Shown here one piece after another: positions 1-8,276 of a stretch of DNA of 8,276 bases (the first letter of the stretch is position 1; every line of letters begins with the position of its first letter). The DNA comes from a virus (Duplodnaviria > Heunggongvirae > Uroviricota > Caudoviricetes): IMG/VR virus record IMGVR_UViG_2513237361_000010, one strand, 5' to 3'. The position numbers and the translations under genes were made by a program. The notes beneath the pieces were generated by a model, which saw only the letters and a list, made by a program, of their open reading frames with translations, was not told the origin of the DNA and searched no databases.

Positions 1-435
1 ATGTCCGGTAATATCTATACGCTGTACAAATCCCACTGTGAAAATGTTGGAAAGTATCGGGGCATTGAAATCAGTGGGGTAGTGTCATCAGTCGAAATAA
101 GCAAAGTTGAATCAAGGGCAACATTACTTACTCTTTTGGACCTTGTCTTACATGAGCACCGGAAGAAATTCGGCACTCCCTATAATCAGTTGAATGGGAA
201 AAAGGCTCTGGTTCACCTTATTCTGATGAAGCATCACTGGATGCCAAAACAGATTAATGAGATGAAATTTGATGAACTTCTTCTTTCAATTCAGGATGAA
301 CTCACACTTGATAAAATAAGCGTAACCGCCCAGAAATTTTTAGATTATCGAGACTGGAGATCACAAATTCATCACTTTGATGATTTTGACGAAAATGAAT
401 GGGAGCCTAATTTGTCTGCACAATATCTAAAGTAA
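1..435 (+). CDS. hypothetical protein, low-GC orphan (moron-like) gene
   Basis: 144-codon ORF beginning at the window edge ATG, so the true start and promoter are unverified. Markedly AT-rich compared with the rest of the window. No motif I recognise; acidic stretch DDFDENEWE near the C-terminus. Opposite in orientation to the adjacent leftward PL-like promoter. Confidence 0.5.
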   Translation: MSGNIYTLYKSHCENVGKYRGIEISGVVSSVEISKVESRATLLTLLDLVLHEHRKKFGTPYNQLNGKKALVHLILMKHHWMPKQINEMKFDELLLSIQDELTLDKISVTAQKFLDYRDWRSQIHHFDDFDENEWEPNLSAQYLK

Positions 436-613
436 CATCCTGTGATAAAACCGTGATTTCCTGATCCAGTTTTTTTAAGGAGTCTATTGTTTCCTGTCGA
501 TAAGACAGCACTTCACGAAGCTGGTTTATAGCTGCCAGCTTCTTTGTCATCCACTCATAAATTTCCTCATCTGTGTAGCCAGGCGCGACGATTTTGGGTT
601 CTGTTTTGTGCAT
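407..613 (-). CDS. hypothetical small protein (68 aa), possible first gene of the leftward early operon
   Basis: ATG at 611-613 (minus strand) preceded by GAGGAG at about 6 nt spacing. The track ORF 407..628 uses an upstream TTG. Its 3' end overlaps the 3' end of ORF 1..435 by 29 nt, convergently. No recognisable domain. A plus-strand hairpin (517-542) lies inside it, which lowers confidence. Confidence 0.35.
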   Translation of the reverse strand: MHKTEPKIVAPGYTDEEIYEWMTKKLAAINQLREVLSYRQETIDSLKKLDQEITVLSQDVTLDIVQTN

Positions 614-671
614 TTCACATCTCCTCAAGTTATCAGTTACTTGTTGATGGGGACCAGATTGTTAAAGAGCG

Positions 672-696
672 AAGCGTCCGGTAGGGCGCTTTTTTG
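672..696 (+). terminator. putative intrinsic terminator (GC-rich hairpin plus T6)
   Basis: aagcgtcc (672-679), loop ggta, gggcgctt (684-691): 8-bp stem with one G-U wobble on the plus-strand RNA, followed by a run of six T (690-695). The minus-strand RNA would carry a C-A mismatch and no U tract, so this is plus-strand specific. Confidence 0.5.
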
Positions 697-773
697 TTGC
701 TAACGAATCATCCTGGACTTCATATGCCCCAGGCGGCTACTTCGTGGGCGTCCTGCCTGTTCGTTGTTTCGCT

Positions 774-808
774 TGGGTACATTATGTATCTCATAGGTAC
801 ATTGTCAA
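774..808 (-). promoter_or_regulatory. PL-like leftward sigma70 promoter with overlapping operator half-sites
   Basis: On the minus strand: TTGACA (plus coords 803-808), 16-nt spacer, CATAAT (781-786). Two direct copies of GGTACATT (776-783 and 796-803) overlap the -10 and -35, and match the GGTACA half-sites in the operator region at 1538-1609. Confidence 0.45.
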
Positions 809-812
809 GTAT

Positions 813-835
813 AAAAAAACCTGCCGAAGCAGGTT
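813..835 (-). terminator. intrinsic terminator of the repressor gene
   Basis: Perfect 7-bp inverted repeat aacctgc (818-824) / gcaggtt (829-835) with loop cgaa. On the minus strand it is followed by a 7-nt U tract (plus-strand A run 813-819). Sits 13 nt downstream of the repressor stop codon at 848-850. Confidence 0.65.
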
Positions 836-847
836 CATAAACATTGA

Positions 848-1522
848 TTAGGCTTTGATTTTGTATCTTCTTGGTTTTCCTGAGAAAATCACTGTACCAA
901 TTATAGAGCAATTACCGTTGATCTTAATGTAAGGCTCAGGCCAGTTTGGGTTTAACGCTTTGAGATAACGCTGTGTCCCATCTTCTATCAACCTTTTGAA
1001 GGTGGTTTCACCTGTATCGTGCATCAATGCAATAACGTCGTCACCGTGGCAGGCAGGTACTTCAGGATCGACAAAAATCATGTCTCCCGGGCGGTACTCA
1101 TCAATCATTGAATCACCTATCACCCGCAAGATATAAGTCATTTCCCCGCAGGGTACAGGGCAGGGATATGTTTCTGCTGTGCTCAAATCAACCTCAGAAT
1201 ATCCAACTTCTTTCCATGCTCCGGCCTGTACCCATGATATGACAGGGACTAATGTGATTTGTTTATTAGTGATTGAAACATCAGGTTGTTTTGTGATGTT
1301 CGTTGTCTGGTGTTCTTGATCGAGCCATCCGACAGGCAGGTCGAAACATTTTTCGATGTGTCGTGCCATGCTGTCACCGATATTTTTAGTAGCACCATCT
1401 CCCATAAACCTGCTGGTCTGGGTTGGCTCGCGATCAATCATAGTGGCAAAGGAAGAATTCCCGCCAACACCATCTCTCAGTTTTCTGGCGTTAGACCGCC
1501 GGATGTCATGGATTGTTTTCAT
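848..1522 (-). CDS. CI-like phage repressor, HTH domain plus S24 (LexA/CI-type) autopeptidase domain
   Basis: 224 aa. C-terminal domain carries the S24 signature: Ala-Gly cleavage site (VQAGAW), catalytic Ser in VIGDSM, GDMIFVDP, and catalytic Lys in FKRL. The N-terminal part has HTH-like character. Divergent from the Cro-like gene, with its own terminator. Confidence 0.85.
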   Translation of the reverse strand: MKTIHDIRRSNARKLRDGVGGNSSFATMIDREPTQTSRFMGDGATKNIGDSMARHIEKCFDLPVGWLDQEHQTTNITKQPDVSITNKQITLVPVISWVQAGAWKEVGYSEVDLSTAETYPCPVPCGEMTYILRVIGDSMIDEYRPGDMIFVDPEVPACHGDDVIALMHDTGETTFKRLIEDGTQRYLKALNPNWPEPYIKINGNCSIIGTVIFSGKPRRYKIKA

Positions 1523-1612
1523 AACGAAATTAAAACCCTTGTACCGTTAAGGTACAAGTATCTTGAAGGTTCATTTCAATCATGTAATATGTACACCGGA
1601 GGTACATATTGT
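1523..1612. promoter_or_regulatory. divergent operator/promoter region (PRM-like and PR-like) between repressor and cro-like gene
   Basis: Perfect dyad cttgtacc-N5-ggtacaag (1538-1558) and dyad atatgtac-N7-gtacatat (1587-1609). Candidate rightward promoter: -35 TTGAAG (1563-1568), -10 TAATAT (1585-1590). Candidate leftward promoter: -10 TTTAAT (complement of 1529-1534) only 6 nt from the repressor ATG, implying a leaderless or near-leaderless repressor mRNA as with lambda cI. Confidence 0.55.
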
Positions 1613-1813
1613 ATGAAAGCGTATTGGGACTCTTTAACCAAAGAACAGCAGGGCGAGTTGGCCGGAAAAGTTGGCTCAACACCTGGCTACTTACGGCTGG
1701 TTTTCAATGGTTATAAAAAAGCCAGTTTTGTGCTGGCTAAAAAACTTGAGCAATGCACGTCAGGTGCAATTACGAAATCTGACTTAAGACCGGATATCTA
1801 TCCGAAAGATTAG
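1613..1813 (+). CDS. Cro-like small HTH regulator (Cro/YdaS family)
   Basis: 66 aa. ATG at 1613 preceded by GGAGG (1597-1601). Divergent from the repressor and sharing its operator region. Sequence pattern (ELAGKVGSTPGYL...GAITKSDLRP) resembles small Cro-type prophage regulators. The upstream part of track ORF 1286..1813 is antisense to the repressor and is ignored. Confidence 0.7.
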   Translation: MKAYWDSLTKEQQGELAGKVGSTPGYLRLVFNGYKKASFVLAKKLEQCTSGAITKSDLRPDIYPKD

Positions 1814-1844
1814 CAGAACACTTTCAATTTTTAACCACAGAACG

Positions 1845-2408
1845 ATGAGGCTAATCGTGGGTAAGCATCACTGGAAAATAGAAAAACAGCCTGAGTGGTA
1901 CGTGAAAGCTGTCAGAAAAACTATCGCGGCGTTGCCGGGTGGTTACGCTGAAGCGGCTGACTGGCTCGATGTAACAGAAAACGCTTTATTCAACCGCCTT
2001 CGTGCAGATGGCGATCAGATTTTCCCGCTGGGATGGGCAATGGTTTTACAGCGTGCTGGTGGCACTCACTTCATTGCTGATGCTGTGGCGCAGTCTGCAA
2101 ATGGCGTCTTTGTGTCTCTTCCTGACATCGAGGATGTGGACAACGCCGATATCAACCAACGCCTGCTGGAGGTCATTGAACAGATCGGCAGTTATTCAAA
2201 ACAGATTCGTTCAGCAATTGAAGACGGTGTAGTGGAACCGCATGAGAAGACAGCAATTAATGACGAGCTGTACCTCTCAATTTCGAAGCTGCAGGAGCAT
2301 GCAGCACTGGTCTACAAAATTTTTTGCATTTCAGAAAGTAATGACGCCCGCGAGTGTGCAGCTCCGGGCGCCGTGGCGTGTCGTGACTGTGGAGAAACTA
2401 ACGCATGA
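1845..2408 (+). CDS. YdaT/CII-like early regulatory protein (positional assignment)
   Basis: 187-aa ORF directly after the cro-like gene, the position occupied by cII or ydaT-type genes in lambdoid and rac-like prophages. Its stop overlaps the next start (ATGA at 2405-2408). Family assignment is by synteny and general resemblance only. The start could instead be GTG 1857, which has a GAGG 6 nt upstream. Confidence 0.5.
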
Positions 2409-2743
2409 ACAGTTTAACAACACACTACCGTCGCTCGCAACTGATTGCACTTCCTGTACCGGGTGGAAAAGCGAAGGTGGAGTATTGCTATGCAGTAAAT
2501 GTACCAGGTGACAGGGAAATTGTAACCCACAGCTTTGCAGAGTGGGCTGTGGGTGATTTCAACCGGCAGAAGGAGACAGTCCTTTGCGACAAGTTAACCG
2601 CTGGTTCAAAGATCACTACGGAGTGCCCGTCAGAGTCATTCGTTGGGAGCCGGAAACACAACGTGTTATCTACCTCCGCGAAGGCTATGAGCATGAATGC
2701 TTCAGTCCGCTCGAACAGTTTCGTCGTAAATTCAGGGAAATAG
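2405..2743 (+). CDS. hypothetical protein; C-terminal half doubtful (frame conflict)
   Basis: ATG at 2405 overlaps the stop of the previous gene. The first ~58 residues look protein-like. After ~2580 this frame becomes Ser-rich and low-complexity, while the overlapping frame looks like a real protein. Confidence 0.4.
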
Positions 2744-2763
2744 AGGTCGGTCATGAGCACTAA
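2584..2763 (+). CDS. unannotated small ORF (59 aa, TTG start), or the frameshifted C-terminal part of the preceding gene
   Basis: Not in the ORF track (below its length cutoff). AAGGAG at 2570-2575, then an 8-nt spacer, then TTG 2584-2586. Translation [59 protein letters not shown] is rich in W/F/Y and charged residues. Stop at 2761-2763 overlaps the start of the initiator gene. Confidence 0.35.
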
Positions 2764-3694
2764 ATTAACCGGCTATGTATGGGATGGTTGCGCTGCGTCA
2801 GGCATGAAATTATCCAGCGTGGCAATTATGGCCCGCCTGGCTGATTTCAGTAATGACGAAGGTGTGTGCTGGCCATCAATTGAAACCATTGCCCGCCAGA
2901 TTGGTGCGGGGATGAGTACCGTCAGAACGGCTATCGCACGGCTGGAAGCAGAAGGCTGGTTAACGCGTAAGGCGCGTCGCCAGGGTAACCGCAATGCGTC
3001 GAATGTTTATCAGCTTAACGTTGCGAAGCTTCAGGCTGCGGCTTTTTCTCAACTGTCAGATTCTGACCCGTCAAAATCTGACGCATCAAAATCTGACCCG
3101 TCAAAATTTGATGCGTCGAAATCTGGCAAAAAAGCGGGTTTTCACCCGTCAGAATCTGGCGGGGATCCGTCAGTAAAATCAAAACATGATCCGTCAGATA
3201 AAAAAACTTCTCGTCCGGACGCTTCGCAACCGGACACGCAGACGGCTGAACAGGAGTTTTTAACTCGCCATCCTGATGCGGTTGTATTCAGCCCTAAAAA
3301 GCGCCAGTGGGGAACGCAGGATGATTTGACCTGCGCACAGTGGCTCTGGAAGAAAATAATCGCCCTGTACGAGCAGGCTGCCGAATGTGACGGCGAGGTG
3401 GTTCGTCCCAAAGAACCGAACTGGACAGCCTGGGCAAACGAAATTCGCCTGATGTGTGTACAGGATGGGCGTACTCACAAACAAATCTGCGAGATGTACA
3501 GCCGTGTCAGCCGCGATCCGTTCTGGTGCCGTAACGTGCTCAGCCCGTCGAAGCTGCGGGAAAAATGGGATGAGCTTTCCCTGCGCTTATCGCCGTCCGT
3601 CAGCACGTACACCGAAAAACGCGAGGACCCGTACTTCAAAGCCAGTTACGACAACGTGGACTACAGCCAGATCCCGGTAGGATTCAGAGGGTGA
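2753..3694 (+). CDS. replication initiator, lambda O-like architecture (N-terminal HTH DNA-binding domain, iteron-encoded linker, C-terminal domain)
   Basis: 313 aa. ATG at 2753 with GAGG 6 nt upstream. N-terminal region resembles HTH replication-initiator domains. The central low-complexity linker (SDSDPSKSDASKSDPSKFDASKSGKK...) is encoded by DNA iterons, as in lambda O. Stop overlaps the next gene. Confidence 0.7.
   Translation: MSTKLTGYVWDGCAASGMKLSSVAIMARLADFSNDEGVCWPSIETIARQIGAGMSTVRTAIARLEAEGWLTRKARRQGNRNASNVYQLNVAKLQAAAFSQLSDSDPSKSDASKSDPSKFDASKSGKKAGFHPSESGGDPSVKSKHDPSDKKTSRPDASQPDTQTAEQEFLTRHPDAVVFSPKKRQWGTQDDLTCAQWLWKKIIALYEQAAECDGEVVRPKEPNWTAWANEIRLMCVQDGRTHKQICEMYSRVSRDPFWCRNVLSPSKLREKWDELSLRLSPSVSTYTEKREDPYFKASYDNVDYSQIPVGFRG
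3055..3200. repeat. iteron array, putative origin of replication inside the initiator gene
   Basis: 15-bp periodic direct repeats ttctgacccgtcaaa / atctgacgcatcaaa / atctgacccgtcaaa / atttgatgcgtcgaa (3061-3120), with further CCGTCAG copies at 3146, 3167 and 3191. The unit contains the dyad gtcaga / tctgac. The array is followed by an A-rich stretch (3198-3207). Confidence 0.7.
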
Positions 3695-3696
3695 TC

Positions 3697-4185
3697 ATGA
3701 GTCTGTTAAATGACGTTCAGAAATTCATTGAAGCCCATCCGGGGTGTACTTCCGGAGACATTGCGGATGCTTTTGCAGGTTACTCACGGCAGCGCGTTCT
3801 GCAGTCTGCAAGCAAGTTACGTCAGAGTGGGCGTGTGGCTCACCGTTGTGAAGGGGATACACGCAGACATTTCCCGCGCCTGACTGAGAGAGCGCAGGAG
3901 CCGGAACCACAACCAGTTCGTGAAACCAGACCTGTGCGCAATTTCTATGTCGGCACTAACGATCCCCGGGTGATTTTGTGCCTGACCCGCCAGGCTGAAG
4001 AACTGGAGTCAAGGGGCTTATACCGTCGTGCTGCAACCGTGTGGATGGCGGCATTCCGTGAAAGCCACTCCCAGCCAGAACGAAACAATTTTCTGGCGCG
4101 TCGTGAGCGGTGCTTACGGAAAAGCAGCAAGCGCGCTGCATCGGGTGAAGAGTGGTATCTGTCAGGGAATTACGTGGGGGCGTAA
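3697..4185 (+). CDS. PerC-family-like transcriptional regulator with N-terminal winged-helix-like extension
   Basis: C-terminal region AEELESRGLYRRAATVWMAAF...ERNNFLARRERCLRKS matches the PerC/Pch signature (LE..GLWRRAA..W ... RR..C). The track ORF starts at GTG 3691; ATG 3697 is preferred. Stop TAA 4183-4185 overlaps the next ATG (TAATG). Confidence 0.65.
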   Translation: MSLLNDVQKFIEAHPGCTSGDIADAFAGYSRQRVLQSASKLRQSGRVAHRCEGDTRRHFPRLTERAQEPEPQPVRETRPVRNFYVGTNDPRVILCLTRQAEELESRGLYRRAATVWMAAFRESHSQPERNNFLARRERCLRKSSKRAASGEEWYLSGNYVGA

Positions 4186-4511
4186 TGACGACGTTAACTC
4201 AATGCCAGCAGCAGGTGCTGGATATGCTGATTTCTTATCAGAAAGAGCGTGGCTTTCCGCCAACCAATCAGGAGGTGGCAACCATGCTGGGATACCGTTC
4301 GGTGAATGCAGCGGTGGAGCATCTTCGCGCACTGGAGAAAAAAGGTGTCATCACGATAAAGCGTGGCGTGGCCCGGGGTATCACTCTTCATACCGCGGTG
4401 GAGGACGACGACAGCGAGGCGGTCGGGATTATCCGCGCACTGCTTGCCGGTGAGGCAAACGCCAGGCTGCGTGCAGCCCACTGGTTACATGAGAGGGGCC
4501 TGAAAGTATGA
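4185..4511 (+). CDS. LexA-like protein: LexA N-terminal DNA-binding domain and hinge only, no S24 peptidase domain
   Basis: 108 aa. MTTLTQCQQQVLDMLISYQKERGFPPTNQEVATMLGYRSVNAAVEHLRALEKKGVITIKRGVARGITL aligns by eye with E. coli LexA residues 1-70, including recognition helix NAAxEHL. It is followed by an acidic hinge (VEDDDSE) and a VG..AGE remnant of the cleavage region, and ends about 25 residues later. GGGGG sits upstream of ATG 4185; the stop overlaps the rusA start (ATGA). Confidence 0.8.
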   Translation: MTTLTQCQQQVLDMLISYQKERGFPPTNQEVATMLGYRSVNAAVEHLRALEKKGVITIKRGVARGITLHTAVEDDDSEAVGIIRALLAGEANARLRAAHWLHERGLKV

Positions 4512-4897
4512 AGCTAATACTGCCTTTTCCGCCCAGCGTGAACACGTACTGGCGACACCCCAACAAAGGGGCGTTTGCAGGTAAGAGCCTGATAAGCGCG
4601 GCGGGGCGCAAATTCCAGAGCGCGGCGTGTGCAGCAATAGTTGAGCAGTTACGTCGTCTGCCAAAACCAACGTCGGCACCTGCTTCAGTGGAGATCGTGT
4701 TGTTTCCTCCGGATAACCGGATCCGCGATCTGGACAACTATAACAAGGCGCTGTTTGACGCCCTGACCCACGCGGGTGTGTGGGAAGACGACAGTCAGGT
4801 GAAAAGAATGCTGGTGGAGTGGGGACCGGTTATCCCGGAAGGGAAGGTCGAGATCACTATCAGTAAGTACGAGAAAACGGCGGGTGCAGCCGCCTGA
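4508..4897 (+). CDS. rusA: RusA Holliday junction resolvase
   Basis: 129 aa. Motifs LPFPPSVNTYWR and DLDNYNKALFDALTHAGVWEDDSQV match the RusA family, including the acidic catalytic region. A typical lambdoid NinR-region gene. Confidence 0.9.
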   Translation: MKLILPFPPSVNTYWRHPNKGAFAGKSLISAAGRKFQSAACAAIVEQLRRLPKPTSAPASVEIVLFPPDNRIRDLDNYNKALFDALTHAGVWEDDSQVKRMLVEWGPVIPEGKVEITISKYEKTAGAAA

Positions 4898-4916
4898 TCA
4901 AGAGGAGAAACGAAGT

Positions 4917-5159
4917 ATGAATAATCTGATGGTCATTGATGGTATTGAAGTTCGTCGTGATGCTTATGGGCGTTACAGCCTGAACGATCTGCATCGCGCA
5001 GCAGTAGCATCTGGTGCAAATGCCAGAACCAAGGAGCCAGGAAAGTTTCTTTCCAGCCAACAAACTGTTGAACTTGTTCATGAATTGACCAACACCCAGA
5101 ATTTGGGTGTTGACCCGGTGAGTGTGATTCATGGGGGAAATGAACGGGGAACGCCGTAA
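4917..5159 (+). CDS. KilA-N domain protein, apparently truncated
   Basis: ATG at 4917 with GAGGAG 9 nt upstream (the track ORF starts at GTG 4884). The pattern IDGIEVRRDAYGRYSLNDLHRAA...PGKFL...GGNERGT resembles the N-terminal half of KilA-N / antirepressor N-domains. The ORF stops right after the GG..GT motif and no frame continues the domain. Confidence 0.55.
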   Translation: MNNLMVIDGIEVRRDAYGRYSLNDLHRAAVASGANARTKEPGKFLSSQQTVELVHELTNTQNLGVDPVSVIHGGNERGTP

Positions 5160-5472
5160 ATTCAGTATCCTTGTGCGTATCCTCGCTGACGGGCGCACCA
5201 CAGACATCCCGCTGGGGCGTTTTCTGCGGGAATTTACCTGTGACCGTCCTGACCTGTTTAAACGCAGCCCCGTAAACCGGCATGCGGTACTGAAAGAAAT
5301 GGCCGGAGACCCGGAATTACAGAAATGGCGGGAGAAATATCTGGATATTTACCCGCAGGACCCTGTTCCGGTCAGCCGGGCGGCACCGGTGGCGCGGGAA
5401 TGGCGGGAAATTCCCCGCACGGAGCCTGACCCGGAAATCACCCCGGATAACAGTTACCGCAATTATCTGTAA
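5131..5472 (+). CDS. hypothetical protein
   Basis: 113-aa ORF overlapping the 3' end of the KilA-N ORF by 29 nt in another frame. Alternative ATG at 5140. Higher GC than upstream genes. No recognisable motif. Confidence 0.45.
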   Translation: MGEMNGERRKFSILVRILADGRTTDIPLGRFLREFTCDRPDLFKRSPVNRHAVLKEMAGDPELQKWREKYLDIYPQDPVPVSRAAPVAREWREIPRTEPDPEITPDNSYRNYL

Positions 5473-5500
5473 TTAAAAAACGACACCCGAAAAATTAAAT

Positions 5501-5526
5501 GTGCGTATTCGCGCAGGGATACGCAC
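5501..5526. promoter_or_regulatory. perfect 8-bp inverted repeat (gtgcgtat-N10-atacgcac), candidate operator or RNA stem-loop
   Basis: Lies in the only sizeable intergenic gap of the rightward operon (5473-5607). No U tract follows, so it is unlikely to be an intrinsic terminator. Confidence 0.4.
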
Positions 5527-5545
5527 GTCTTCAGGAGACGCAGAT

Positions 5546-5611
5546 ATGCCTTATCAGTTAATGCAACCGGCACGGAATGCAGTCATCTGTCACAGGGAGG
5601 AAAGCAAATGA
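5546..5611 (+). CDS. possible 21-codon upstream ORF / leader peptide ([21 protein letters not shown])
   Basis: AGGAG (5533-5537) 8 nt upstream of ATG 5546. Its stop TGA 5609-5611 overlaps the ATG of the next gene (ATGA). Could be a chance ORF. Confidence 0.25.
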
Positions 5612-5928
5612 AAACCCCCTTACCGCCCGTCTTACGCGCAGCCCTTTACCGTCGCGCTGTCGCCTGTGCCTGGCTGACCGTGTGCGAACGTCAGCACCGC
5701 TACCCGCATCTCACCCTTGAATCACTGGAGGCGGCCATCGCCGCTGAGCTGGAAGGCTTTTATCTGCGCCAGCACGGTGAGGAAAAAGGGCGTCAGATAG
5801 CCTGTGCCCTGCTGGAAGATTTAATGGAATCCGGCCCCCTGAAGGCCGCGCCGTCGCTGTCCTTTCTCGGGCTGGTTGTGATGGATGAACTCTGTGCCCG
5901 TCACATAAAAGCGCCGGTACTGCACTGA
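5608..5928 (+). CDS. hypothetical protein immediately upstream of the primase
   Basis: 106 aa. GGGAGG 7 nt upstream of ATG 5608. Stop TGA 5926-5928 overlaps the primase RBS (AGGAGA). No recognisable motif. Confidence 0.6.
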
Positions 5929-5942
5929 AGGAGAACAACACC

Positions 5943-8276
5943 ATGAAAATGAACGTAACCGCCACCGTCAGCCATGCACTCGGCCACTGGCCGCGTATTC
6001 TCCCGGCGCTGGGGATTCAGGTGCTGAAAAACCGTCATCAGCCCTGTCCGGTCTGTGGCGGGAGTGACCGCTTCCGTTTTGATGACAGGGAGGGGCGCGG
6101 CACCTGGTACTGCAATCAGTGTGGTGCCGGTGACGGCCTGAAACTGGTTGAAAAGGTGTTTGGTGTTTCCCCGTCCGACGCGGCCACAAAGGTGGCTGCC
6201 GTGACCGGCAGTCTGCCCCCGGCTGACCCGGCAGTGACGGCCGCCGCCGTTGCTGAAACAGAAGCCGCCCGGAAGAACGCCGCCGCACTGGCACAAACCC
6301 TGATGGCGAAAACCCGTCCCGGAACCGGTAACGCCTACCTGACCCGCAAGGGCTTTCCCGGCCGGGAATGCCGGATGCTGACCGGCACACACAGAGCCGG
6401 TGGCGTGAGCTGGCGCGCCGGTGACCTTGTGGTGCCACTGTATGACGACAGCGGCGAACTGGTTAACCTTCAGTTAATCAGTGCTGACGGCCGTAAGCGC
6501 ACCCTGAAAGGCGGACAGGTCAGGGGCACCTGTCACATCCTTGAAGGACAGAATCAGGCCGGAAAACGTCTGTGGATAGCGGAGGGATACGCGACCGCAC
6601 TTACCGTACATCACCTGACCGGTGAAACGGTGATGGTGGCGCTTTCTTCCGTGAACCTCCTTTCTCTGGCCAGCCTTGCCCGGCAGAAGCATCCGGCCTG
6701 TCAGATTGTCCTTGCCGCAGACCGTGACCTCAGCGGTGACGGCCAGAAAAAAGCCGCCGCAGCCGCAGATGCGTGTGAAGGTGTTGTTGCCCTGCCGCCG
6801 GTCTTCGGTGACTGGAATGATGCCTTCACGCAGTACGGCGGGGAAGCCACCCGTAAGGCCATTTATGATGCCATCCGGCCACCGGCTGAAAGCCCGTTCG
6901 ACACCATGAGCGAAGCGGAGTTTTCCGCCATGAGTACCAGCGAAAAGGCCATGCGTATCTATGAGCATTACGGCGAGGCGCTCGCGGTCGATGCCAACGG
7001 CCAGCTTCTGTCCCGCTATGAAAATGGTGTCTGGAAGGTGCTGCCGCCACAGGACTTTGCCCGGGATGTGGCCGGGCTGTTTCAGCGGCTGCGCGCGCCG
7101 TTCTCCTCCGGGAAGGTGGCCTCCGTGGTGGACACCCTGAAGCTGATTATTCCGCAGCAGGAAGCCCCCTCCCGCTGCCTGATTGGCTTTCGTAACGGCG
7201 TGCTCGACACGCAGAACGGCACGTTCCACCCGCACAGTCCGTCACACTGGATGCGTACCCTGTGCGATGTGGATTTCACCCCGCCGGTGGAAGGGGAAAC
7301 GCTGGAAACCCACGCCCCCGCGTTCTGGCGCTGGCTTGACCGTGCCGCCGGTGGCCGTGCGGAAAAACGCGACGTGATTCTGGCCGCACTGTTTATGGTG
7401 CTGGCAAACCGCTATGACTGGCAGCTCTTTCTGGAGGTGACCGGTCCCGGCGGCAGCGGCAAAAGTATCATGGCCGAAATAGCCACCCTGCTGGCCGGGG
7501 AGGATAACGCCACGTCGGCCACCATCGAGACGCTGGAATCCCCGCGTGAACGTGCCGCGTTAACTGGCTTCTCACTGATACGCCTGCCGGACCAGGAAAA
7601 ATGGAGCGGCGACGGAGCCGGACTCAAGGCCATCACCGGCGGCGATGCGGTGTCCGTTGACCCGAAATACCGGGATGCGTACTCCACGCACATCCCGGCG
7701 GTGATTCTGGCCGTGAACAATAACCCGATGCGCTTCACCGACCGCAGCGGCGGCGTGTCACGCCGGCGGGTGATTATTCACTTCCCGGAACAGATAGCCC
7801 CGCAGGAGCGCGACCCGCAGCTTAAGGACAAAATCACCCGCGAGCTGGCGGTCATCGTGCGTCACCTGATGCAGAAGTTCAGCGACCCGATGCTCGCCCG
7901 GTCACTGCTTCAGTCCCAGCAGAACTCAGACGAGGCGCTGAACATCAAACGGGATGCCGACCCGACGTTTGATTTTATCGGCTATCTGGAAACCCTGCCG
8001 CAGACCAGCGGCATGTATATGGGGAACGCCAGTATCATCCCGCGTAATTACCGTAAATACCTCTATCACGCCTATCTGGCCTACATGGAGGCAAACGGCT
8101 ACCGGAATGTACTCAGTCTGAAAATGTTCGGGCTGGGGCTGCCGGTGATGCTGAAGGAATACGGGCTGAATTACGAGAAGCGCCATACCAAACAGGGGAT
8201 ACAGACCAACCTGACGCTGAAAGAGGAAAGCTACGGCGACTGGCTGCCAAAATGTGACGACCCTACAACAGCCTGA
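5943..8276 (+). CDS. P4 alpha-type primase-helicase (zinc-ribbon, TOPRIM primase domain, P-loop NTPase/helicase domain)
   Basis: 777 aa. N-terminal zinc ribbon CPVCGG...YCNQCG. TOPRIM-like region with the acidic motifs LWIAEGYATAL and VLAADRDLSGDGQ. Walker A GPGGSGKS, with a downstream VILAVNNNP motif typical of SF3-type helicase domains. Strong RBS AGGAGA 9 nt upstream. Ends exactly at the window end. Confidence 0.9.
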   Translation: MKMNVTATVSHALGHWPRILPALGIQVLKNRHQPCPVCGGSDRFRFDDREGRGTWYCNQCGAGDGLKLVEKVFGVSPSDAATKVAAVTGSLPPADPAVTAAAVAETEAARKNAAALAQTLMAKTRPGTGNAYLTRKGFPGRECRMLTGTHRAGGVSWRAGDLVVPLYDDSGELVNLQLISADGRKRTLKGGQVRGTCHILEGQNQAGKRLWIAEGYATALTVHHLTGETVMVALSSVNLLSLASLARQKHPACQIVLAADRDLSGDGQKKAAAAADACEGVVALPPVFGDWNDAFTQYGGEATRKAIYDAIRPPAESPFDTMSEAEFSAMSTSEKAMRIYEHYGEALAVDANGQLLSRYENGVWKVLPPQDFARDVAGLFQRLRAPFSSGKVASVVDTLKLIIPQQEAPSRCLIGFRNGVLDTQNGTFHPHSPSHWMRTLCDVDFTPPVEGETLETHAPAFWRWLDRAAGGRAEKRDVILAALFMVLANRYDWQLFLEVTGPGGSGKSIMAEIATLLAGEDNATSATIETLESPRERAALTGFSLIRLPDQEKWSGDGAGLKAITGGDAVSVDPKYRDAYSTHIPAVILAVNNNPMRFTDRSGGVSRRRVIIHFPEQIAPQERDPQLKDKITRELAVIVRHLMQKFSDPMLARSLLQSQQNSDEALNIKRDADPTFDFIGYLETLPQTSGMYMGNASIIPRNYRKYLYHAYLAYMEANGYRNVLSLKMFGLGLPVMLKEYGLNYEKRHTKQGIQTNLTLKEESYGDWLPKCDDPTTA

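Follow-up and report, generated by a model that had tools for sequence, protein, structure and literature searches.

A probable chimeric prophage remnant in Escherichia sp. TW09308 that joins an SfIV-type lambdoid early region to a replication fragment of satellite phage P4

In phage lambda, the origin iterons lie within the gene for the initiator O, at its inter-domain linker, and the gene P follows downstream; the C-terminal domain of lambda O is the P-binding domain in that phage. The early right operon of SfIV, a UV-induced, plaque-forming and lysogenising phage (PMC3851460), runs in the order O-like, PerC-like, LexA-N-like, KilA-N, HNH/DUF968 and Q. In the satellite P4 (X51522 / NC_001609), the distal part of the left operon reads orf151-orf106(cnr)-alpha-crr. 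Here, we examine an 8,276-nucleotide (nt) stretch of Caudoviricetes DNA (IMG/VR record IMGVR_UViG_2513237361_000010; hereafter, the window), in which an O-like initiator gene with its own iteron array and a gene for a P4-alpha-type primase-helicase stand in one early operon. A first-pass annotation had proposed that such an element may replicate through two origins or initiators, or that the primase module may come from a satellite fused onto the prophage. We favor an origin by fusion and estimate, at a probability of roughly 85%, that the window belongs to a chimeric, lineage-specific remnant of prophage DNA on the Escherichia sp. TW09308 chromosome, formed by the illegitimate joining of an SfIV-type lambdoid prophage and P4.

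Gene content was taken from a six-frame listing of open reading frames (ORFs) together with family searches in Pfam, PHROGs and NCBIfam, and the window was compared by megablast with 50,697 phage records and 5,426 complete E. coli genomes. In both collections it splits cleanly into two blocks, 1-5153 and 5152-8276. The first matches SfIV, SfII, SfV and hundreds of E. coli prophages at 95-98.6% identity (97.7% DNA identity between window 1-4877 and SfIV), and the second is phage P4 (X51522) 7760-4636, minus strand, at 98.6% identity. The lambdoid part has a G+C content of 38-57%, and the P4 part one of 56-64%. None of these phage records or complete E. coli genomes has a place covering at least 80% of the window, and no record in either collection carries the lambdoid and P4 modules together. 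The architecture is that of one divergent immunity pair followed by one rightward gene string; every ORF across 1613-8276 lies on the + strand, and no convincing + strand intrinsic terminator is predicted between the ORFs of this interval. The O-like initiator with its internal iteron array and, downstream on the same strand, the primase-helicase of 777 amino acids (aa) are present as the first-pass annotation had described them. Its suggestion of a satellite module fused onto a prophage is borne out by the match of the second block to P4 and by a sharp break that truncates a gene on each side.

The fusion joint (J2; 5150-5154) is placed by lambdoid matches that end at 5153 and by a P4 match that begins at 5152. 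In a three-way alignment, the window equals the lambdoid relative up to ...GGGGAACG and equals P4 from ...CGCCGTAAATTCAG; the switch is sharp and the overlap common to both parents is 2-4 nt. No att site or insertion sequence element was found at J2. On the lambdoid side, about 79 codons of the KilA-N gene precede the cut, which leaves a 3'-truncated + strand gene of 80 aa (4917-5159; Pfam KilA-N positions 5-75 of 107, PHROG 8274 positions 1-79 of 354) whose final codons and stop are P4-derived; in intact relatives the protein has about 269-271 aa, and the intact gene of E. coli 19KM1863 is 810 nt long. On the satellite side, the first 45 codons of P4 orf151 were lost, and seven new lambdoid codons stand in frame with its last 106 codons, forming a + strand ORF of 113 aa (5131-5472; PHROG 10748 positions 43-151 of 151). 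Thus, one joint that cuts both KilA-N and orf151 yields two chimeric ORFs. We propose that illegitimate recombination or deletion at the level of microhomology joined two elements, in which case the lambdoid parent would be the early-right operon of an SfIV/SfII/SfV-type prophage, broken inside KilA-N, and the satellite parent would be the left operon of a P4 prophage, broken inside orf151. Site-specific integration of P4 into a prophage was rejected, as J2 lies inside orf151/KilA-N, far from attP (P4 4078-4097), and no integrase is present.

An assembly or sequencing chimera, in which the lambdoid and P4 parts would be contiguous in no real genome, could be suspected from the absence of the arrangement from all complete E. 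coli genomes and phage records searched, from its source, a 2011-era whole-genome shotgun record in one 4.8-Mb contig, and from outer joints with host DNA (J1 and J3, described below) that are non-syntenic with E. coli. We consider such an artefact very improbable. Exact look-up of either chimeric protein finds two places only, namely AEME01000001.1, which belongs to Escherichia sp. TW09308 (PMC3850674) and whose 4.81-Mb contig contains the window exactly (L003:4871-13146), and the sequencing run SRR29904084. The Logan contig of this run extends over 1,244 nt, spans J2 and differs from the window by two single-nucleotide polymorphisms (SNPs); because these set it apart from AEME01000001.1, it is an independent observation of J2 and not a copy of the same record. 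Moreover, J2 lies between unique sequences that share 2-4 nt, a pattern that repeat-driven misassembly does not give. With an independent contig spanning the joint, an assembly artefact at J2 was rejected. Searches for the J2 44-mer in GTDB species representatives, JGI metagenomes and IMG/VR found no copy, and the joint is real but very rare.

The P4-derived part of the window carries two complete genes. The first, orf106 (5608-5928, +; Pfam DUF5375, E 2.9e-63), which we take to be the P4 copy-number regulator cnr, encodes a protein identical to that of P4, with three synonymous and no non-synonymous differences. The second, alpha (5943-8276, +), is intact and encodes the 777-aa primase-helicase-origin-binding protein, whose helicase is of the SF3 type, with the Pfam domains Zn_Ribbon_Prim, Toprim_3, D5_N, DUF5906 (the region with the Walker A motif) and, at the C-terminus, Pox_D5. 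Neither the EGYATA primase motif nor the GPGGSGKS Walker A motif is disrupted. The proposed P4-alpha type is confirmed by 769 of 777 residues identical to P4 alpha, and the 26 synonymous and eight non-synonymous differences give a dN/dS of 0.097. The exact alpha sequence was found by exact look-up in TW09308 only, and in the phage collection every full-length homologue that reaches 60% identity belongs to a P4 record. The likeness to P4 alpha, whose C-terminal domain binds its own origin, extends to this domain as well, since residues 671-770 show 100% identity to the crystallised P4 origin-binding domain (PDB 1KA8).

Cognate repeats, which the first-pass annotation had thought might lie outside the window, are found just past its end. 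The alpha terminator is followed at once by a complete P4 crr, which occupies the positions 45-345 nt past the window end (L003:13190-13490); it differs from P4 at 5 of 345 nt, keeps both 120-bp repeats and has all ten annotated type I iterons identical to those of P4. In the window itself, the exact TGTTCACC iteron occurs zero times and one-mismatch copies are at chance level, and within the 20-kb locus no copy lies outside crr.

The P4 part retains the left-operon distal order of P4 given above, with the loss of many other P4 features. The P4 ori1 (ori 9086-9809; six type I iterons and an AT-rich region) is located beyond the break at P4 7760, as are cI and epsilon (7888-8584), the PLE/PLL promoters, int and attP, and the DNA upstream of 5152 is lambdoid. 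None of ori1, cI, epsilon, PLE/PLL, int or attP was found in the 20-22 kb read around the element, and orf88/alpA, sid-delta-psu, cos and gop-beta-cII are also missing here. P4-like satellites have been defined by the components int, psu, delta, sid, alpA, epsilon and alpha, with at most two missing (PMC8628076). Of these seven core components, alpha alone is present within about 10 kb on either side; by the published definition, the P4 part is a fragment with one core component and not a P4-like satellite. The sequences in cis are the lambdoid origin-like iterons and P4 crr, and P4 ori1 is not in cis within the locus read.

The O-like replication initiator (2753-3694, +; 313 aa) matches PHROG 391, 'replication initiation O-like', over its full length (E 4.8e-135), and 312 of its 313 residues are identical to SfIV gp41. 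The family at its N-terminus is HTH_36 (Pfam E 4.2e-11, aa 23-70, with overlapping GntR and MarR-type matches) and not the Phage_rep_O of lambda, and a PDB sequence search with the protein gave weak MarR-type winged-helix matches only. Its C-terminal half is homologous to the C-terminal domain of lambda O (BLASTP E 2e-25; 30% identity over 216 aa), and within this match aa 182-277 are aligned to lambda O 187-270. Secondary PHROG matches are to 'DnaD-like helicase loader', 'primosomal protein' and 'replisome organizer'. Inside the gene, iterons with a 15-bp period and the consensus TCTGACCCGTCAAAA form 4.3 tandem copies at 3062-3125 (Tandem Repeats Finder score 86-100), and related copies widen the array to 3055-3200. 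These 15-bp iterons (GTCAAAATCTGACSC), each partly palindromic, are followed by an A-rich stretch (GTAAAATCAAAACATGA...GATAAAAAAACTT). The array sits in the linker between the N-terminal winged-helix and C-terminal domains, the same relative position as in lambda, although the spacing in lambda is roughly 20-24 bp. SfIV and an intact E. coli prophage have exactly this sequence over the region, and we infer that it is a putative lambdoid origin.

The gene that follows the O-like gene overlaps its stop codon by 4 nt, just as in the lambda O/P pair. In lambda this downstream gene is P, whereas here it encodes a PerC-family, YfdN-like protein of 164 aa (3691-4185, +; Pfam PerC, E 7.8e-9; PHROG 1324, E 6e-79). 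BLASTP found no similarity between this protein in the 'P position' and lambda P. Its N-terminal region is winged-helix-like. In agreement with the first-pass annotation, no helicase or loader family (lambda P, DnaC or DnaB type) was matched by any window ORF in Pfam, PHROGs or NCBIfam; for the C-terminal half of O and the PerC-like ORF, the Pfam loader search was run with the E cut-off relaxed to 10.

The lack of a loader homologue in the window, together with the lambda-O-type C-terminal domain that the O-like protein retains, would suit a functional substitution, in which alpha replaces a lambda-P-type loader and gives helicase and primase to the O-bound origin. The comparison with SfIV makes this highly doubtful. 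No loader, helicase or primase is annotated in SfIV 20000-39758, an interval that runs from the serotype-conversion genes, takes in the early region and reaches the right end, and none is annotated in an intact E. coli prophage relative. The missing loader needs no alpha, because SfIV is viable and, with an O protein differing at a single residue, has neither loader nor primase in this interval. The absent loader is a trait of the SfIV phage family and makes no call for alpha, and the role of stand-in that the first-pass annotation implied for the primase-helicase is not supported. Further points against substitution are that close full-length alpha homologues are confined to P4, that the origin-binding domain of alpha directs it to TGTTCACC iterons, of which the O region has none, and that the juxtaposition of O and alpha is unique to one lineage. 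Across the SfIV/SfII/SfV/e14-type family, a lambda-O-type C-terminal domain is found, yet no recognisable P, DnaC or DnaB-like partner accompanies it.

SfIV (KC814930 / NC_022749) has the same gene order as the lambdoid part of the window, comprising cI, cro-like, cII-like, O-like, PerC-like, LexA-N-like and KilA-N, and the SfIV equivalent of window 2753-4185 is L005:10444-11876 in the SfIV stretch. A RusA gene, which in the window lies between LexA-N-like and KilA-N, is found in E. coli relatives. SfIV continues to the right with a full KilA-N, an HNH/DUF968 gene, Q, lysis and virion genes, and to the left with int/xis; here, the SfIV-type module ends at 5153 inside KilA-N, and in the assembly a second cut, on its left, lies 141 bp outside the window.

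The lambdoid side would have kept a complete immunity and replication module, including a cI-type repressor, operators, a rightward promoter (PR), cro-like and cII-like genes, and O-like with its iterons. The repressor gene (848-1522, -) is intact and encodes a 224-aa protein of the LexA/S24 family (YmfK-like; Pfam Peptidase_S24, E 1.5e-26) that is annotated as ymfK or cI in relatives. The immunity intergenic region (1523-1612) contains two palindromes, 1538-1558 (CTTGTACCGTTAAGGTACAAG) and 1589-1607 (ATGTACACCGGAGGTACAT), both with a GTAC core and operator-like on inspection of the sequence. Between them is a candidate PR, TTGAAG-16 nt-TAATAT at 1563-1590, which scores under the threshold of a consensus scan, and its status as a promoter is therefore an inferred one. 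A Cro-like small helix-turn-helix protein of YmfT/YdaS type (1613-1813, +; 66 aa; Pfam YdaS_toxin and HTH_3, both weak; ymfT in E. coli relatives) and a CII-like regulator (Phage_CP76, YmfL; 1845-2408, +; Pfam PF06892, E 3.3e-13; PHROG 101, E 2.7e-70) follow.

The remaining lambdoid genes are small. Two overlapping ORFs occupy 2405-2763 (+), each with family matches; 2405-2743 and 2584-2763 overlap by 160 nt in different frames. The former matches PHROG 1170 (E 1e-69) and is annotated as SfIV gp40, with PHROG 20047 covering just its first 63 aa; the latter matches Pfam DUF4222 (E 8.6e-19) and is annotated in RefSeq E. coli, and annotators differ in their choice of ORF. Beyond the PerC-family gene lies a gene for a protein that consists of a LexA N-terminal DNA-binding domain only (4185-4511, +; 108 aa from the annotated start of relatives; Pfam LexA_DNA_bind, E 3.7e-19). 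This protein, conserved across SfIV-type phages, has no S24 cleavage domain, and it could provide occupancy of LexA boxes without cleavability. An intact RusA Holliday-junction resolvase gene (4508-4897, +; Pfam RusA, E 6e-15; PHROG 34) completes the block before the truncated KilA-N gene. PADLOC gave no meaningful match to a defence system in the window, and a defence-system reading was dropped.

If the window is a chimeric remnant, its parts would work as follows. The retained lambdoid module is the same one that would drive replication of viable SfIV without a phage-encoded loader or primase, and O would act at its own iterons, as in SfIV, via host helicase-loading functions. On the P4 side, orf106 (cnr), alpha and crr would have been kept, and ori1, the immunity region, epsilon and both P4 promoters lost. 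Alpha would bind only iterons of the TGTTCACC type, which are located in crr and not in the window, such that O and alpha are probably neighbours by accident and cooperation between them is not expected. Alpha would depend for its transcription on the lambdoid PR, by read-through, or on promoters that happen to lie nearby; the cI-type repressor would then keep alpha silent, and SOS induction would turn it on together with O. In the absence of integrase, excisionase, Q, lysis and virion genes, the outcome would be at most local replication in situ and no phage production.

The element is flanked by host genes. On the left is siiEA, a BapA-related giant adhesin gene that is 5'-truncated, and E. 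coli siiEA homology stops 141-146 nt before the window. In E. coli, siiEA is a single 21.7-kb ORF; here (L003:1-4730) it is represented by the 3' ~7 kb only, is split into ORFs of 1570+ aa and 924 aa, and ends abruptly at lambdoid DNA. The right neighbours are pbpG-yohC-yohD-mdtQ-dusC-cdd, and P4 homology runs to the outer edge of crr and no further, which leaves 18 nt up to the stop codon of pbpG (L003:13490-13510). The outer boundaries of the element are J1 (siiEA/lambdoid), 141 bp left of the window, and J3 (crr/pbpG), about 345 bp to its right. The stretch of about 190 nt between crr and attP of P4 is missing right of crr. In addition, dld, the convergent neighbour of pbpG in E. coli, is absent beside pbpG in TW09308, and the TW09308 locus also lacks yohF, found between yohD and mdtQ in E. 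coli.

No integrase, excisionase, Q, lysis or virion genes were found in the 20-22 kb around the element. An intact SfIV-type prophage, with int/xis, Q, lysis and morphogenesis genes contiguous, is not what this locus holds; host genes flank it, with the left boundary taken from one assembly. Since the assembly has no integrase, Q, lysis or virion genes, the element is not an inducible lysogen. The idea of a two-origin strategy of an inducible phage, also raised in the first-pass annotation, finds no support in these results, as the pairing of modules occurs in no record searched and the genes that such a phage would use for excision, lysis and virion formation are missing.

A related proposal dispenses with phage production. 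In a functional dual replicon, SOS would switch on O at its own iterons and alpha at ori2/crr, giving two active origins about 3-10 kb apart, and the host lineage would keep the unit because it amplifies DNA locally, confers superinfection immunity or interferes with P4-type satellites that enter the cell. In keeping with this proposal, both initiators, orf106 (cnr), the O iterons and crr are intact, the genes are co-directional with no + strand terminator predicted, and the intact cI-type repressor and operator-like palindromes could hold both modules silent; the presence of J2 in two SNP-differing samples also implies that it has been inherited for some time. However, a microhomology joint with a truncated gene at both edges points to an accident and not to an exchange of modules, and the P4 promoters and ori1 have been lost. 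Moreover, an assembly without excision, packaging or lysis genes means that firing would occur in situ and would probably be harmful, and J2 is present in only two samples of very large collections. We therefore regard a functional dual replicon as unlikely.

The interpretation of the window as a chimeric remnant also has evidence to contend with. Both J1 and J3 rest on one assembly. J1 falls at an adhesin gene with immunoglobulin-like (Ig) repeats and J3 at the end of a segment conserved among P4-like elements, and repeats could end there; siiEA and pbpG are ~1.7 Mb apart in E. coli, and their proximity here implies a large rearrangement or deletion, or an assembly join. If J1 or J3 were such a join, there might be more prophage to the left. 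A 28-mer from the 3' end of pbpG has no match among GTDB representatives. Read-through from PR to alpha is a prediction, made from the lack of any intrinsic terminator called on the + strand. The retained ORFs are all intact, and no decay is seen in alpha; this fits a very recent event and is also compatible with retention by selection. Finally, alpha with its internal ori2, together with crr, reportedly makes up a second, self-sufficient P4 replicon (oriII), which Tocchetti et al. are said to have described in 1999. If so, and if alpha is expressed, the cnr-alpha-crr block may still be replication-competent.

In each module the initiator is intact and the cis sites are present at least in part, and firing from two origins in situ may occur. 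It is conceivable that the locus is chromosomal, non-excising and SOS-inducible, with P4 cnr-alpha-crr placed under the cI/PR switch and this dual-initiator arrangement retained for a function, although we think this quite unlikely. If true, the locus might serve to kill cells that are induced or infected, to keep out P4-type satellites, or to amplify the genes next to it, and the benefit would arise via induced in situ over-replication or titration of alpha by crr.

The chimeric remnant that we favor also bears on the movement of such elements between species. The host being Escherichia sp. TW09308, its core genes in the flank (L003:13480-20342) show only ~91% identity to every one of the 5,426 E. 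coli genomes. Phage and satellite sequences reach 98-99% identity to E. coli/Shigella elements, and this difference indicates a recent exchange of lambdoid and P4 elements across Escherichia species boundaries.

Cryptic Escherichia prophage remnants in K-12 include e14, CPS-53 and CP4-57. These are likewise short phage blocks without excision, packaging or lysis functions, in which a repressor and early genes are kept and genes at the edges are truncated. Unlike the K-12 remnants, the TW09308 remnant fuses pieces of a helper-independent lambdoid phage and a satellite in one transcription unit. The element is built from already characterised modules and is an ordinary mosaic prophage remnant.

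The significance of the finding is small beyond correct annotation. One illegitimate joining of prophage and satellite DNA is enough to place two replication systems in one operon, and such an arrangement is not to be taken for a designed dual-origin strategy. This natural fusion puts a satellite initiator under a lambdoid repressor unrelated to the helper, and the retained cnr-alpha-crr segment is exactly the piece of P4 that would be able to fire if transcribed.

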